Assembly: GCF_003334385.1 (NCBI RefSeq)
Contig: NZ_QOWN01000015.1
Origin: Escherichia coli
Lineage (GTDB): Bacteria > Pseudomonadota > Gammaproteobacteria > Enterobacterales > Enterobacteriaceae
Direction: 5' to 3' (one strand)
DNA length: 64,000 bases
The translations under genes were made by a program, and so were the position numbers. The notes under the pieces are model-generated. The model made no database searches, was not told where the DNA came from, and saw nothing but the letters and a program-made list of their open reading frames with translations. This document shows, piece by piece, positions 6,329-25,151 of this stretch. The first letter of the stretch is position 1; every line of letters starts with the position of its first letter.

Positions 6329-6477
6329 GACTCCTCCAGTGAGAAAATAGAGCAAAAGATAAGTATAGATGCTGGAGGAGGGGCGATTTTAAATGAGAGG
6401 AATCTGGTGTGCCTCCCTTTCGGGTGAAAGGGAGGAAGGGATATTAAGCAGGTTGCTGACAACGTGCGGGCTTTTTT

Positions 6478-18642: not shown

Positions 18643-19908
18643 TCAAACATCCATGCCCAACGCTCGCTTACCGTGAATGTTGAGGTCGGCAAGCGTAAAG
18701 CGTCCTTCCCAGTTTGTTTCATAGTCCTCGCGCGGGAAGTCGCCCGGCGATGCGCCTTTTTCCAGTGCGGCCTTCACCTTGTGCGCGTAGGCAAGATTTT
18801 TCTCGCACATCGGTGCCGCAGGAATGTACATCACGTTGCCCCAACCTTGTTGATTTTCAACGGGGGCAACGGAATGGATGACGTCGCAGTGCCACCAGAC
18901 GGAGTCTCCGGCTTCGAGTTTTGGAATGCTGGTTAACGCCTCAATCAACAGTGGATGTCATTGCTCTGATACCGGCAATACTCTTCCGGGCGCTACGCCG
19001 CACAGTTCATCCTCCGGCACATCATCAAGCAGCGGACGTAACAGTACGTACGCCATAGCTTCAGGAATGGGCACGACGTGCAGCAGCCCCTGACCAGGCA
19101 GCATATCAGAGAGCGCTGTCCAGCCCTGGAATGTCCGAAACACGGAACATTTGGTGGTGTTGTCCACCGTGTACTCTTCAACTTCCGTACGATGTGCCGC
19201 ATGCCAGGGATCATATTGCGCCAGATTGCCATTAAAGACGTTGGCGAAAACGCGCTGATACGCTGGAAGCAGCCAGCGTTCCAGTGCCCCGGAGTCGGTA
19301 TGCGCTCCAAGACCTTTGGAGGTCGTTCCGGGCGGACGGCGGCGGATACGGTCAGGGTAGATGACGCTCACATCCGGGTTAAACCATTGCTTTCCATCAC
19401 TTTCAAATGTCCACAGACGATTGAGAAACGACTGCGCATTCGCCATTTCTTCACTCTGGCGGGCCTGCATTTGCGCCTGCGACCAGTAGATGGGGTAAAT
19501 CTCGGGACGTGAAGCGCTGAGCGTCCCGAAGAAATTATCGCCGGGGCCTTTGTAGACCTCGTCAAAGCGGTTGCGGTCCAGATAGTCCAGCATCGACTGA
19601 TCCCAGCCTAGCGCTTGTTCGCGGGGGAAATGGCCTTTTATCACCGCACAACCGCGACGTTTAATCTGTTCGCGCTGCTCTGCAGTAACATGACCTGCTT
19701 TGATATCGGCATAAGACAGCACCGGCCAGACGGCATCGCCCTGTGCTTTGAGTGCGTTGATTTCAGCCACTCGCGTGGCAATGTCATCGCTTAGCTGATT
19801 AAAGATCTGCTGGACGTCGCCAAGCTGCGCCCGCAGCGCGTGCTTCATCTGACGGATAGCTGCTTTGTGATCGGCAGGCAATGTGTCGCTGGTAAAAGTA
19901 GAAGCCAT
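18643..19908 (-). pseudogene. ybiU: ybiU (DUF1479 family protein) interrupted by an in-frame TGA at 18958..18960
   Basis: ORFs 18958..19914 (318 aa) and 18643..18948 (101 aa) are in the same frame; read-through gives ...PVSEQ*HPLLIEALTSIP... and a 421-codon ORF from MASTFTSD, the length I recall for intact YbiU. Confidence 0.7.
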
Positions 19909-19923
19909 AACCACCTCTCATTA

Positions 19924-19937
19924 ACTTTCATTCGAAA
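19924..19937 (-). promoter_or_regulatory. Copy A of exact 14-bp motif TTTCGAATGAAAGT (minus-strand reading), 15 nt upstream of ybiU ATG
   Basis: Plus strand reads ACTTTCATTCGAAA; identical 14-mer also at 20946..20959 and 24394..24407. Confidence 0.5.
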
Positions 19938-20059: not shown

Positions 20060-20875
20060 TCAGCTGTTAAAAGGGGATGTGTTATCCAGCACCGCCTGAA
20101 TCACATTCAGCGCGCCTTCATGATTATTATCATCGGTAGCGTAACGGGCGATTTGTTTAATGTTTTCCGCAGCATTGCCCATCGCAAAGGAATAACGCGC
20201 CATTTTCAGCATCTCCGCATCGTTACCGCTGTCGCCAATCGCTACCACATTTTGCGGTGACAGATCCCAGCGTTTCAGTAACCGCGAAATACCGTTTGCT
20301 TTATGTAGACCGGGAATAATCAGGTCGATAAAGCCAAAACCACTGGTAACGGGTTTCATAATGCCATCGAGCGCTACGTGCAGTTTGTCGATCACTAACG
20401 GGATTTGTTCATCCGGCAGGTTGAGCGAAAACTTGAACAGTACGTCGTCAATCTCCTGATAATCTTTTACAGGTTTCAGGCGATGGTAGTGTTTTGCCAT
20501 CAGTGCGACAAATGCTTCGGGGGCATTTTCGCTGACATATGCACTTTGCAGACCGCAGGCGACAAAATTGAGTTGCTTATCTTTTAGCAACTCGCCAATA
20601 ACAATCCGCGATTCATGTCGGGTCAGTTCGCCGTGGAACAACTGCTTGCCATGTTCGTAAACCAGTGCGCCGTTTTCCGCGACAAAAGAGATCTCATCCT
20701 TTAGCTCAGGAAAGAATGAAATAAGCTGGTAATACTGATTACCGCTGGCAACAACGAACTTAATGCCGCGCTTTTTCAGTTCCTGATATTGCGCCATAAA
20801 ACGTGGTTGGTTGTACGTTTTGGCGTCGTTAAGAAAAGTACCGTCCATGTCTGTGACGATAACTTTTACGCTCAT
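20060..20875 (-). CDS. ybiV: HAD-superfamily (Cof-type) sugar phosphatase YbiV
   Basis: 271-aa ORF with HAD motif I DMDGTF and C-terminal GDSGND. Confidence 0.9.
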
Positions 20876-20945
20876 AGGTGTGCTCCTGGCTCGAAAATGA
20901 AACCGTAACAGTGTAATAACAATGTGACGCAGAGCACAAATTATA

Positions 20946-20959
20946 TTTCGAATGAAAGT
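20946..20959 (+). promoter_or_regulatory. Copy B of exact 14-bp motif TTTCGAATGAAAGT, 70 nt upstream of ybiV ATG
   Basis: Exact match to copies A and C; lies between ybiW stop and ybiV start. Confidence 0.5.
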
Positions 20960-21020: not shown

Positions 21021-23453
21021 TTACAGCATATGTTCAGTACGGGCGATGATATCGTCCTGAGCGTCTGGAGAGAGCGCGGTGAAGAACGCGGAATAGCCCG
21101 CGACACGCACTACCAGATCGCGATACTGATCGGGATGTTTTTTCGCATCCAGCAGCGTTTCGCGGGAAACGATGTTGTACTGAATATGCCAGCCTTTATG
21201 CACTTCAAAGAAGGTACGCAGCAGGATCATCAGTTTCTGCTTGTCAGATTCGTTCTCCAGCGTTGCCGGATTCAGTTTCTGGTTGAGCAACACGCCGCCG
21301 AGAATCGCTGCCGTAGGCAGTTTACCCACTGAGCCAATGACCGCAGTAGGGCCAAGATGGTCAGTACCGGAGGCCGGGCTTGCGCCTTCTGCCAGCGGGG
21401 TGTGGGCTTTACGCCCGTCCGGTGTTGCCATAGTCTGCGCGCCAAACGGTACGTTAGCGGAGATTGATGACGTACCCGCGTAATAGTTGCCGCCAACCGG
21501 ACCACGACCGTAGCGCGGATTATGGTACTGTTTCAGTTCGTCGATATAGGTCTGATAAGCGCGAGCCAGCAGCGTATCGACAGTATCATCGTCGTTGCCG
21601 TACTTCGGCGCACCGTTAATCAGCCGCTGACGCAGCTGCTCGTGAGTCAGGCCGTCGAAGTCATCTGCCAGTGCGGCAGCAAGCTGTTGCTGACCAATCG
21701 CACCTTGTTCAAACACCAGTTTCTTCACTGCCGCCAGGCTGTTGCCGAGGTTGGCAATGCCGACCTGCAGGCCAGAAACCCAGTCATATTTCGCGCCGCC
21801 TTGCTTGATACTTTTCGCTCGCTCAATACAGTCATCCACCAGCGCCGAGCAGAGAATATCGTGCACGTTCTCTTCCAGCATGGTGTCGACGACATATTCG
21901 ATTTCGATTGATTTGCGGGTGTAGTAACGGATTTGCGTATCCCACGCGTCCATCACTTCATCGAAGTTGTTGAAGTTACCTGCCGACAACGCTTTTTCTT
22001 GTGGCAGGAACACTTTGCCGCTGGTGGCATCATGCCCGCCTTCCAGCGCCGCCAGCATCACGCGGGCGAAGTTGATAAAGCTCATGCCGGTACAGCGATA
22101 GCCCCATTTGCCACCGACGGCGGTTTCTATACAACCAATCGCTGCGTAGTCATAAGCGTCCTGCGGTTCAATACCGAGTTTAATAAATTCCGGGATCACG
22201 ATTTCGTCGTTGTTGAACGCCGGCATCCCGAAGCCGCAACGGATCACCTGTACGCAGGCGTCGAGGAAATCGTTGCTCATTCCTGCATGGTAACGCACGC
22301 TGAGGTTAGGCTGAGTGGAACGCAGGCGACCGCAGGATTCGAGGATCGCGTAAGAGAGTGGATTCACCGCGTCCATTGGTTGACCATCAACCAGATTTTG
22401 CCCGCCAATAGTGACGTTCTGATACAGCGGACTTCCCGCAGAGGCTTTTGAGTGTGAGCCGGAGCGGATCTTGTTCACTTCCAGCAGTTTCAGCCAGCAG
22501 CTATGCAGCATCTCGATGGCGTGTTCGCGATCCAGCGTCTGGTTGAGTTCAACGTCGCGGCGATAGTACGGGTAGAGATACTGGTCCATACGACCAAACG
22601 ATACTGAGTGACCGTTAGATTCGATCTGCAAAATCAACTGGATGAAGTAACACAGTTGCAGCGCCTGCCAGAAAGTCTGCGGCGGCTGGTGGGCGATAAG
22701 ATCGCAGTTTTCTGCCATCGCCAGCAGTTCATCGCGACGGCTTTCGCGGGTTTCGGTCGCGGCCATTTCACGCGCCAGGGCAGCGAAACGTTCAATGTGT
22801 TCACTGACTGCCACCAGCACGATATCAATCGCTTTCAGGAATTGCTCACCGTGTAAATCTTCCAGCACCGTCAGGTTGATGCGCGAGCGACGTTCCGCTA
22901 CTTTCTCGCGCAGACCATCAAGCCCTTTTTCCAGCAGCAGCGGGAAATTCACCGCCAGGTGCGCATCGCCGGAGGTCATATTGCCTTCCGCTTTAATGAT
23001 TCCGGTCGCCAGCAGACCTTTTTGCTCATCGGTAAACATGCCGTAGCAGCGATCCTGTACGGTCTGACCGCGCCACCACGGGCACACTTCATGCAGAACG
23101 CGTTTGTTCTCTTCGCTCACCGCAAAGCCAGCACCGGGACGATCTGCCAGATCATCAATCTCTTTTTCGATCCACGAGACAGTATATTCCGGGAAGATCG
23201 GCGCGGCGCGAACTTCGCTTGCCTGGTTGCCAATGATCAACTCATCGTGTTTGATCCAGATGGTGCGATTCGCCAGGTGATGCGCCAGTGCCAGCGCGCG
23301 ACGTACCGGGATCGGCTTATCGAGATGTTGTTGATACATCTCGGTATAGTGCTGCGCGCGCTCGGTACAGACTGGCGGTTTCACAATATGCACCAGCGCA
23401 TTTTTGTGCGCTTTAATGCGGTCGCTGAGCGTGTCCAGTTTCAGTGTGGTCAT
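21021..23453 (-). CDS. ybiW: Glycyl-radical enzyme YbiW (PFL-like fold; active-site loop GCIE of the eliminase type)
   Basis: 810-aa ORF; C-terminal glycyl radical motif RVAGYSA; single catalytic Cys followed by Glu (AAIGCIETAVGG) rather than adjacent Cys-Cys. Confidence 0.9.
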   Translation of the reverse strand: MTTLKLDTLSDRIKAHKNALVHIVKPPVCTERAQHYTEMYQQHLDKPIPVRRALALAHHLANRTIWIKHDELIIGNQASEVRAAPIFPEYTVSWIEKEIDDLADRPGAGFAVSEENKRVLHEVCPWWRGQTVQDRCYGMFTDEQKGLLATGIIKAEGNMTSGDAHLAVNFPLLLEKGLDGLREKVAERRSRINLTVLEDLHGEQFLKAIDIVLVAVSEHIERFAALAREMAATETRESRRDELLAMAENCDLIAHQPPQTFWQALQLCYFIQLILQIESNGHSVSFGRMDQYLYPYYRRDVELNQTLDREHAIEMLHSCWLKLLEVNKIRSGSHSKASAGSPLYQNVTIGGQNLVDGQPMDAVNPLSYAILESCGRLRSTQPNLSVRYHAGMSNDFLDACVQVIRCGFGMPAFNNDEIVIPEFIKLGIEPQDAYDYAAIGCIETAVGGKWGYRCTGMSFINFARVMLAALEGGHDATSGKVFLPQEKALSAGNFNNFDEVMDAWDTQIRYYTRKSIEIEYVVDTMLEENVHDILCSALVDDCIERAKSIKQGGAKYDWVSGLQVGIANLGNSLAAVKKLVFEQGAIGQQQLAAALADDFDGLTHEQLRQRLINGAPKYGNDDDTVDTLLARAYQTYIDELKQYHNPRYGRGPVGGNYYAGTSSISANVPFGAQTMATPDGRKAHTPLAEGASPASGTDHLGPTAVIGSVGKLPTAAILGGVLLNQKLNPATLENESDKQKLMILLRTFFEVHKGWHIQYNIVSRETLLDAKKHPDQYRDLVVRVAGYSAFFTALSPDAQDDIIARTEHML

Positions 23454-23458
23454 GGTTG

Positions 23459-24358
23459 TTATCCTCGTAAGGTCGCGGTTAACCCTTTCTGGCAGGCATA
23501 CTGCTGGGCAAAGTCGAGCAGTTCTGGCGCATCAAGCGGTTTTTCCGGGGCGTCATAGGGCAGATTAAGTAAGTGATATTTGTTGATGCCCAGCGTGTGG
23601 TAGGGCAGAAAATGAATTTCGCCAACGTGCAGCTCGTCGGCGGCAAAATCGGTAATGGCTTTTACAGAGGTTTCGTCGGCATTAAAGCCCTGAATCAGCG
23701 GCACGCGGATAATGATTTTTTTGCCCGCTGCGGCGAGTTTTTTCAGGTTATCCAGCACTCTGGCGGCGTTACCGTCGGTCCACTGTTTAAACGGCGCGTC
23801 GGCAACGTGTTTTAAATCGGCAAGAAACAGATCGATATAGGGCAGAGAAGGGGCGATATATTTCCACGGCACATGCAGACAGGTTTCTACCGCAGTATGA
23901 ATGCCTGCCTCGTGGCTGGCTTGCAGTAGCGCCATCGCCATTTCCGGCTGCATAAAGGGCTCACCACCCGAAAGCGTTAAACCGCCGCCGCTGCGATCGT
24001 AAAACGGTTTATCGCGCAGAACGGTCGTCATGATCTCCTCAACGCTTTTCACTTCACCACACACGGTTAATGCCTGTGTCGGACAGCAGTCGGTTAACGC
24101 CGTCAGATGCTCCGGGGTTAACTTTTCCCGATGAATAAGCAAACCATTCAGCGCGCGCTCAATCACTTCCGGCGCGGCCTTAGCGCACAGCTCGCAGCCT
24201 TCCAGACACAGTCGTGCGTCATACAGCAGATCCTGCGTGCGGGCGCGGCTTTCCGGGTTCTGACACCAGCGGCAGCCCAGCGAACAGCCTTTAAGAAATA
24301 CGACCGTGCGGATACCGGGGCCATCATGGGTCGAGTAGCGCTGAATATTGAAAATCAT
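23459..24358 (-). CDS. ybiY: Glycyl-radical enzyme activating enzyme YbiY (radical SAM)
   Basis: Start chosen at [36 protein letters not shown] (CX3CX2C radical-SAM motif) within ORF 23459..24385; additional Cys-rich ferredoxin-like insert. Confidence 0.85.
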
Positions 24359-24393
24359 AGTTGCCTCTCTATTTCGTTCAAGCATTAAAATAC

Positions 24394-24407
24394 TTTCGAA
24401 TGAAAGT
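24394..24407 (+). promoter_or_regulatory. Copy C of exact 14-bp motif TTTCGAATGAAAGT in ybiY/fsaA divergent region
   Basis: 35 nt upstream of ybiY ATG and 81 nt upstream of fsaA ATG; flanked by 6-bp inverted repeat arms ACTTTC/GAAAGT. Confidence 0.5.
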
Positions 24408-24411
24408 TAGA

Positions 24412-24425
24412 TTGATGTGCGTCAA
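24412..24425. promoter_or_regulatory. FNR-like box TTGATGTGCGTCAA upstream of ybiY
   Basis: Matches FNR consensus TTGAT-N4-ATCAA with one mismatch; centred about 60 nt upstream of ybiY ATG. Confidence 0.45.
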
Positions 24426-24488
24426 CTGTTCAGAGAGTTTTCCCGTGATAGTCTACATTCAGACAAAAAGTACATTTTGAGGATGGTT

Positions 24489-25151
24489 ATGGAACTGTAT
24501 CTGGATACTTCAGACGTTGTTGCGGTGAAGGCGCTGTCACGTATTTTTCCGCTGGCGGGTGTGACCACTAACCCAAGCATTATCGCCGCGGGTAAAAAAC
24601 CGCTGGATGTTGTGCTTCCGCAACTTCATGAAGCGATGGGCGGTCAGGGGCGTCTGTTTGCCCAGGTAATGGCTACCACTGCCGAAGGGATGGTTAATGA
24701 CGCGCTTAAGCTGCGTTCTATTATTGCGGATATCGTGGTGAAAGTTCCGGTGACCGCCGAGGGGCTGGCAGCTATTAAGATGTTAAAAGCGGAAGGGATT
24801 CCGACGCTGGGAACCGCGGTATATGGCGCAGCACAAGGGCTGCTGTCGGCGCTGGCAGGTGCGGAATATGTTGCGCCTTACGTTAATCGTATTGATGCTC
24901 AGGGCGGTAGCGGCATTCAGACTGTGACCGACTTACACCAGTTATTGAAAATGCATGCGCCGCAGGCGAAAGTGCTGGCAGCGAGTTTCAAAACCCCGCG
25001 TCAGGCGCTGGACTGCTTACTGGCAGGATGTGAATCAATTACTCTGCCACTGGATGTGGCACAACAGATGATTAGCTATCCGGCGGTTGATGCCGCTGTG
25101 GCGAAGTTTGAGCAGGACTGGCAGGGAGCGTTTGGCAGAACGTCGATTTAA
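24489..25151 (+). CDS. fsaA: Fructose-6-phosphate aldolase 1 (transaldolase-like)
   Basis: 220-aa product [31 protein letters not shown]... inside ORF 24417..25151. Confidence 0.9.

Follow-up and report, generated by a model that had tools for sequence, protein, structure and literature searches.

The region between ybiY and fsaA in Escherichia coli raises the question of which factors control the ybiY promoter and from which positions they act. The DNA analysed here, referred to as the window, is a 64,000-nucleotide stretch of contig NZ_QOWN01000015.1 (assembly GCF_003334385.1), in which the open reading frames and RefSeq names give the gene order ybiU-ybiV-ybiW-ybiY / fsaA / moeBA. The first-pass annotation of this DNA had proposed that an FNR-like box and a -10-like element bracket one copy of a 14-bp motif upstream of ybiY, and that the layout fits an FNR-activated class II promoter that is additionally gated by a factor binding the motif. 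The genes and the region between them are as follows.

21021 to 23453, minus strand: ybiW (pflF), glycyl-radical 1,5-anhydroglucitol-6-phosphate enzyme, 810 aa
23459 to 24358, minus strand: ybiY (pflE), glycyl-radical enzyme activase, 299 aa, beginning MIFNIQRY (RefSeq annotation)
24359 to 24488: ybiY/fsaA intergenic region, between the ybiY ATG at 24358 (minus strand) and the fsaA ATG at 24489 (plus strand)
24364 to 24369, minus strand: ybiY Shine-Dalgarno sequence GAGAGG, in a purine-rich block before the ATG that is conserved
24489 to 25151, plus strand: fsaA

The answer that we favor, with a probability of about 0.72, is that the ybiY promoter is an AND gate, at which FNR would activate transcription from a class II position and YciT, a repressor of the DeoR family, would repress it from the promoter spacer. 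The ybiU-ybiV-ybiW-ybiY/fsaA locus was found in all 5426 complete E. coli genomes searched. The argument begins with the box.

24412 to 24425, read on the plus strand: FNR binding site TTGATGTGCGTCAA (TTGACGCACATCAA in the ybiY sense), dyad at 24418.5

As the first-pass annotation had stated, the box at these positions is one mismatch away from TTGAT-N4-ATCAA. The mismatch lies in one half-site, and 13 of the 14 specified-plus-spacer positions are compatible with the consensus. Plain counting of consensus matches is not significant, since five one-mismatch matches to TTGATNNNNATCAA occur in the window against 2.4 expected, and five or more were reached in 9 of 100 shuffles. Therefore, a matrix made from published FNR sites was used instead. 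It was symmetric, was applied in leave-one-out fashion and was derived from the 62 other ChIP-seq-bound FNR sites of Myers et al. 2013. With this matrix, the box is the best match in the 64-kb window (15.67 bits; the runner-up scores 12.36), and it ranks 27th among the 63 ChIP-bound sites. Matches as good as this one are expected about 0.29 times per 64 kb and about 6e-4 times per 130-bp intergenic region. The other two copies of the 14-bp motif, A and B, had been said to have no comparable box nearby, and this is correct: the best score near them is at most 9.7 bits, compared to 11.8 bits for the weakest ChIP-bound site.

Binding of FNR at this position was published in 2013. In anaerobic cells, an FNR ChIP-seq peak labeled "ybiY/fsaA" was found at genome coordinate 862807 (Myers et al. 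2013, Table S5, PMC3688515). The peak was called by all three ChIP-seq peak callers (MOSAiCS, NCIS and CisGenome), but not by ChIP-chip. The predicted site given for it, at 862788, is TTGATGTGCGTCAA, with a PatSer score of 14.54 and an ln p of -13.06; no nucleoid protein overlaps it, and it carries the entry "at ChIP-seq peak: +" (Myers et al. Table S6, PMC3688515). Coordinate 862788 is window position 24412 exactly (offset 838376). FNR ChIP data for the locus, which the first-pass annotation had named as a check, are thus available in the form of a published peak with the exact box sequence.

The sequences of related bacteria were compared through a protein-guided scan for ybiY orthologues, which provided 80 loci from more than 20 Enterobacteriaceae genera, including Escherichia, Citrobacter, Salmonella, Enterobacter, Klebsiella, Raoultella, Kluyvera, Lelliottia, Kosakonia, Phytobacter, Trabulsiella, Yokenella and others. 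The best FNR-matrix match within 130 bp upstream of ybiY is the box in all 80 loci, with scores of 13.1 to 20.3 and a distance to the ybiY ATG of 67 to 72 bp. The half-sites TTGA and TCAA are unchanged in every locus; position 5 is always C or T, and position 10 is always A or G. The central N4 is free to vary (mean top-base frequency 0.53), and the mean top-base frequency in the 20 bp upstream of the box is 0.63. A CRP site (TGTGA-N6-TCACA) was considered for this position and rejected. The specificity base is the T of TTGA, not the G of CRP-type GTGA, the box reads TTGA-N6-TCAA in 80/80 loci, and occupancy by FNR is documented by ChIP-seq. Taken with the published peak, the conservation in 80/80 loci places the box well beyond chance, and it is a genuine, previously published FNR binding site.

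The conservation extends to the elements on the ybiY side of the box. The operator described below starts exactly 20 bp past the box start in 79 of the 80 loci, and the mean top-base frequency over its 16-bp palindrome is 0.99 (79 distinct sequences). The hexamer at +36 from the box start is TTTAAT in 69 loci and a single-base variant of it in ten more. There are 17 loci (Salmonella, Klebsiella, Raoultella, Trabulsiella, some Phytobacter and others) that lack fsaA and have moeB upstream. Even there, the positions of the box, the operator and TTTAAT relative to ybiY are retained, and ybiY is therefore a target of the box. Some loci without fsaA retain a remnant of the 3' end of fsaA adjoining the FNR box, for example TTTGAACAGGATTGGC, which encodes KFEQDW. 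This suggests that, in the lineages bearing a remnant, fsaA was lost by internal deletion rather than never having been present.

These data also bear on whether the site does anything once bound. Like many weak ChIP peaks, it could be occupied by FNR and have no function. The ybiY/fsaA peak belongs to the group for which expression did not change in an fnr-dependent way in anaerobic glucose minimal medium, in an entry that gives ybiY as the estimated target and does not record a regulator or a start site (Myers et al. 2013, Table S9, PMC3688515), and it was missed by ChIP-chip. A functionless site is hardly credible, though, when its half-sites and spacing are absolutely conserved in more than 20 genera while its flanks and N4 drift, and when it is retained after the loss of fsaA.

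The spacing of the conserved elements allows a promoter to be proposed for ybiY, with the following parts.

24384 to 24389, minus strand: putative ybiY -10 element TTTAAT, 36 bp from the box start, 5/6 to TATAAT with T for A at -11
24377, minus strand: predicted ybiY start (A), give or take about 2 nt, the seventh base past TTTAAT, with a 19-nt leader

The box centre (24418.5) is 29.5 bp from the first base of TTTAAT (24389, minus strand), and a start near 24377 would place the FNR dyad at -41.5, which is a class II arrangement. FNR is reported to prefer -41.5 (Wing, Williams and Busby 1995). The sequence at the -35 position for this start, ATCTAA, is poor (2/6). The geometry fits the class II layout put forward earlier, with the box at -41.5 of the predicted start, a near-invariant TTTAAT and a poor -35. 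The -10-like element put forward with it needs correction. The minus-strand sequence from which it was read, TATTTTAATG, is present, one base off the earlier position, at 24383..24392 and not 24382..24391, but the hexamer TATTTT within it (24392..24387) is not conserved. The two bases needed for TATTTT vary between species (AA, TA, CA, CG and others), whereas TTTAAT is kept, and TATTTT was demoted as a -10 in favor of TTTAAT.

Alternative -10 registers would shift the FNR dyad to -38.5 or -43.5. The register with FNR at -43.5 is TAATnT (24387..24382, minus strand), a hexamer that ends in C here. This minus-strand C at 24382, in TTTAATGC, is T in other Escherichia species and in most genera (TTTAATGT, TTTAATAT or TTTAATCT). 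If the TAATnT register were real, this lineage would carry a down-mutation at -7. A generic sigma-70 scan returned TTGAAC-16-TATGAT (24381..24354, minus strand) as its sole candidate, and this was rejected because transcription from it would begin within the ybiY coding sequence and because its -35 lacks conservation. A mapped ybiY start was not found in the Reg-Seq supplements, which do not mention ybiY, or in the Salmonella supplements of Colgan et al., which have no entry for it. Among the rows listed in Myers et al. 2013 (PMC3688515), there is no sigma-70 peak at the ybiY/fsaA coordinates. Just downstream of the predicted ybiY start, at 24370..24376, the minus strand reads ACGAAAT. In most genera, a block of the form ATAYGMAA / ACGAAAG is kept after the -10-like hexamer. 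It is similar to the operator's right half, TCGAAAG, and could represent an accessory half-site for YciT or a constraint on the initial transcript.

Between the box and TTTAAT lies the third element. The 14-bp motif, TTTCGAATGAAAGT, has three exact copies in the window.

24392 to 24407: YciT operator copy C, a perfect 16-bp palindrome ACTTTC-gaat-GAAAGT that holds the 14-bp motif at 24394..24407
20946 to 20959, plus strand: YciT operator copy B, upstream of ybiV and downstream of ybiW, conserved in most loci
19924 to 19937, minus strand: YciT operator copy A, immediately before the ribosome-binding site of ybiU

The motif in copy C had been described as sitting where a promoter spacer would be, and at 24394..24407 it indeed covers -17 to -30 of the predicted ybiY start; the full palindrome spans about -15 to -30. 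The additional factor that had been supposed to bind it can be named as YciT from published ChIP-exo, deletion RNA-seq and DNA chromatography. YciT ChIP-exo gave the targets "ybiUVWY and fsaA" and a palindromic motif (Gao et al. 2021, PMC8464067). In the same study, deletion of yciT raised ybiY by 7.7 log2 units (about 200-fold), ybiU by 7.0, ybiW by 3.5, ybiV by 2.2 and fsaA by 1.8, and the absolute level of ybiY in these data was low, with a baseMean of 24 compared to 6488 for ybiU. That ybiY remains so low in air even when derepressed is expected if its activator is inactive in air.

The published YciT peaks were also placed in window coordinates. The peak at ybiO (6407..6438) covers TTTCGGGTGAAAGG, a motif-like site at 6418..6431, and the peaks at ompX and potF contain sequences of the TTTC-N5-GAAA type. 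Together, these support TTTC-N4/5-GAAA as the YciT site. The two peaks in the cluster itself, at 20079..20112 in the 3' end of ybiV and at 24497..24524 in the 5' end of fsaA, are 100 to 155 bp away from the exact operator copies, and TTTC-N4-GAAA was looked for inside them and was absent. The displacement could be due to a large oligomeric or looped complex, or to peak calling.

The other two copies are placed differently. Copy A has the opposite orientation and lies 4 nt upstream of the ybiU Shine-Dalgarno sequence (GGTTTCGAATGAAAGTTAATGAGAGGTGGTTATG). It is probably downstream of the ybiU start site, judging from its position, unlike copies B and C, which are in promoter spacers. Despite this placement, ybiU is the gene raised by 7 log2 units in the yciT deletion. 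In the window, ybiU itself (ATG at 19908, normally 421 aa) has an in-frame stop at codon 318 (18958..18960, minus strand; '...PVSEQ*HPLL'). A 121-bp query around this stop had no 100% match in the 5426 complete E. coli genomes, the best match being 99.2% with one mismatch, and the nonsense change seems private to this sequence. When copy B is read in the ybiV sense, TATAAT comes immediately after it (most other genera have TAAATT), then a CRP-like palindrome, TGTGC-N6-TCACA, and then a conserved TAGAAT-type hexamer (ybiW-ybiV, 20923..20938 and 20940..20945). Among 60 distinct orthologous sequences, 59 retain the GTG/CAC cores of this palindrome, and the spacer is free to vary. Copy B is thus also paired with a box of the CRP-family type, in an order different from that of the FNR box at ybiY. 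By the downstream hexamer, the CRP-like box would be at about -27.5, which is not a standard activating position.

Anaerobic induction, which had been expected for genes of this kind, agrees with expression data. The ybiY promoter was active in anaerobic cultures only, with or without nitrate (Reg-Seq preprint, 10.1101/2025.05.13.653802). In Salmonella Typhimurium 4/74 and D23580, where fsaA is not upstream, the raw counts of pflF and pflE, which are unnormalised, are highest in anaerobic growth. Those for pflF (ybiW) are 52-83 and 124-162 in anaerobic growth compared to about 6-25 in aerobic laboratory conditions, again unnormalised. The unnormalised counts of pflE (ybiY) behave in the same way, and the neighboring moeB changes little. 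In Shigella dysenteriae recovered from the piglet gut, YbiW was one of the proteins with increased abundance.

The Reg-Seq preprint gives two further results for this promoter. YciT was enriched on the ybiY promoter bait, with its site "in the vicinity of -5" of a computationally predicted start, and an activator footprint was seen "around -20", without a candidate factor (10.1101/2025.05.13.653802). The word FNR does not occur in that preprint. Since the lysate for the pull-down was aerobic, active FNR would not have been recoverable on the bait. The activator footprint is about 15 bp upstream of the YciT position, in agreement with the centres of the palindrome and the FNR box, which are 18 bp apart. 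A companion preprint finds activator-like couplings at -30 to -15 and strong couplings at 0 to +20, and its authors suspect that the predicted start is wrong (10.64898/2026.05.18.726006).

Three mappings of the predicted start onto the window were considered, and a position near 24396 is the one that we prefer. It would put the described features on the palindrome (centre 24400), on the FNR box and on the region of TTTAAT and the start (24389..24377). The Gao et al. site was said to be "about 100" bases upstream of the Reg-Seq site (10.1101/2025.05.13.653802), which agrees with the displacement of 96-110 bp measured here. A predicted start at 24377, which would make the palindrome the "activator" site, is less likely; neither the FNR box nor the anaerobic response would then have a footprint, and a repressor role of YciT at its own motif would be contradicted. 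A predicted start near 24347 would fall inside the gene. With the preferred mapping, we infer that the Reg-Seq start is off by about 20 bp relative to the ybiY start proposed here, and FNR is probably the missing "unknown activator".

Two other explanations of these expression data were weighed. The Reg-Seq authors' own model is that YciT alone gives the oxygen response, as a repressor that acts in air and is relieved anaerobically, and accordingly TTGAC would be a -35-like hexamer and FNR binding would be incidental. TTGACG (24425..24420, minus strand) does match TTGACA at 5/6, the upstream element was described as possibly 'part of an RNAP site' (10.1101/2025.05.13.653802, 10.64898/2026.05.18.726006), and an fnr effect was absent in Myers et al. 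2013. Nevertheless, we consider this model unlikely. Both half-sites are invariant and symmetric around a free N4, which is the signature of a dimer site and not of a -35 hexamer. If TTGACG were the -35, the -10 would have to be CATTCG (24402..24397), a sequence that does not resemble a promoter element. Thus, TTGACG was rejected as a plain -35, the second half-site being equally invariant and there being no -10 at 17 bp. Moreover, ybiY stays very low in the aerobic yciT deletion. Repressors of the DeoR family are not known to be oxygen sensors.

The other explanation is that FNR is a repressor or a roadblock, with the true start at the Reg-Seq prediction, about 20 bp upstream of the start proposed here, and the box at about -22. 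The preferred mapping does put the box at -16 to -29 of the Reg-Seq start. This is nonetheless very improbable: mutating the element lowers expression, which is the signal of an activator, and the promoter is on only anaerobically. The Reg-Seq authors doubt the predicted start themselves, and the conserved -10 is absent at the place where it would be required.

The mechanism that we favor, the AND gate of FNR and YciT, would operate as follows. Without oxygen, dimeric [4Fe-4S] FNR binds TTGATGTGCGTCAA, about 41.5 bp upstream of the predicted start near 24377. From there it would bring in RNA polymerase by class II activation at a promoter whose -35 is weak and whose -10 is TTTAAT. YciT binds the 16-bp palindrome, which takes up the spacer that separates the FNR site from the -10, and would thereby keep polymerase off even with FNR bound. 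Transcription of ybiY-ybiW would then need both anaerobiosis and the release of YciT. YciT is presumably freed by a sugar phosphate from the 1,5-anhydroglucitol pathway, such as 1,5-anhydroglucitol-6-phosphate, as the family of YciT and the pathway it controls would lead one to expect. Such a gate is sensible physiologically because the chemistry of YbiW is strictly anaerobic and its product is reportedly cleaved by FsaA. In a strictly anaerobic glycyl-radical reaction, YbiW turns 1,5-anhydroglucitol-6-phosphate into 1-deoxy-fructose-6-phosphate (Ma et al., summarised in PMC12441222).

Several points stand against the AND gate. TTTAAT lacks the A at -11 that is usually critical. The second Reg-Seq mapping, with the palindrome itself as the 'activator' region, is possible, and the YciT ChIP-exo peaks in the cluster are 100-155 bp from exact motif copies. 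The gap between the palindrome and the FNR box is only 4 bp, and YciT and FNR might therefore compete rather than occupy the promoter together. Lastly, an fnr effect was absent in its only direct test, in glucose minimal medium (Myers et al. 2013). The simplest explanation for a promoter that is bound by FNR and yet silent in glucose medium is that YciT keeps it shut there. The negative fnr result is compatible with a repressor-gated promoter and is not counted as evidence for it.

The same box may also serve fsaA, for which the following elements are predicted.

24446 to 24454, plus strand: putative fsaA extended -10 TG-a-TAGTCT, with TG at 24446..24447 and the hexamer at 24449..24454
24461 (approximate), plus strand: predicted fsaA start, with the FNR dyad at -42.5, 84 bp from the predicted ybiY start

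As a tentative extension of the AND gate, the same FNR dimer might act on the two divergent promoters, from -41.5 at ybiY and from -42.5 at fsaA. For fsaA, the operator of YciT would then be at about -61.5 (about -54 to -69 of the predicted start), where it would hinder the alpha C-terminal domain of polymerase instead of blocking the core promoter. Of the 62 loci with fsaA, 56 have the pattern TGnTAnnnT at an identical distance from the box, and the pattern is missing where fsaA is missing. In the yciT deletion, the increase of 1.8 log2 units for fsaA compared to 7.7 for ybiY fits a weaker, upstream geometry of repression. Co-regulation would make metabolic sense, as FsaA reportedly cleaves the product of YbiW, and single CRP sites can reportedly drive divergent promoters in synthetic constructs. 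Against a shared dimer, the peak was assigned to ybiY by Myers et al. 2013, an extended -10 promoter may work without an activator, and the compactness of the intergenic region could by itself account for the fixed spacing. The full version, in which a natural bidirectional class II FNR site is combined with a single YciT operator that would gate ybiY by spacer occlusion and fsaA from about -61.5, to unequal extents, is somewhat more doubtful still. If this version is true, anaerobic 1,5-anhydroglucitol catabolism would be under a compact switch with two inputs and two outputs, and the locus would illustrate in detail how standard media can leave many FNR-bound sites silent. The closest parallel is the set of CRP constructs of El-Robh and Busby 2002, with one symmetric dimer site midway between back-to-back -10 elements at -41.5/-42.5. 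Those constructs were synthetic; the present site would be a natural FNR case, and it is proposed from conserved spacing alone.

Other parts of the ybiY promoter have counterparts in known systems as well. Like the class II FNR-activated promoters of the other E. coli glycyl-radical enzymes (pflB/focA, grcA/yfiD and nrdDG), ybiY has a TTGAT-N4-ATCAA site that is bound by FNR in the same ChIP-seq set (focA, yfiD and nrdD). As at those promoters, this site would overlap a weak -35, and the radical enzyme that is made is labile to oxygen. Unlike them, ybiY has a start that is only predicted, is silent in anaerobic glucose and has a pathway-specific repressor in its spacer. Several repressors of the DeoR family that respond to sugar phosphates use more than one operator per cluster, examples being DeoR at deoO1/O2/OE, GlpR, AgaR and UlaR. 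YciT resembles them in having three identical operators within 4.5 kb, which front ybiU, ybiV and ybiY/fsaA, and its deletion derepresses all of these. The ybiY/fsaA site is itself one of the FNR-bound, transcriptionally silent targets in Table S9 of Myers et al. 2013, which gives no co-regulator for it; a co-regulator (YciT) and a substrate pathway (1,5-anhydroglucitol) can be named here.

In these respects, the ybiY promoter is an ordinary FNR promoter of the class II type with a local DeoR-family repressor, like those FNR targets that need a second, substrate-specific signal. FNR binding (2013), repression by YciT (2021) and anaerobic activity with an unnamed activator (2025-26 preprint) are already known. 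The synthesis adds FNR as the probable missing activator, a correction of about 20 bp to the start, YciT as an explanation for the silent FNR site, and a possible shared site. The comparative footprint from 80 loci is strong enough to guide mutagenesis directly. More than half of FNR ChIP peaks are silent for reasons that Myers et al. 2013 left open, and a concrete, testable reason is offered here for one of them. The locus controls the enzymes with which E. coli and its relatives ferment 1,5-anhydroglucitol, a polyol of diet and host, in the gut.
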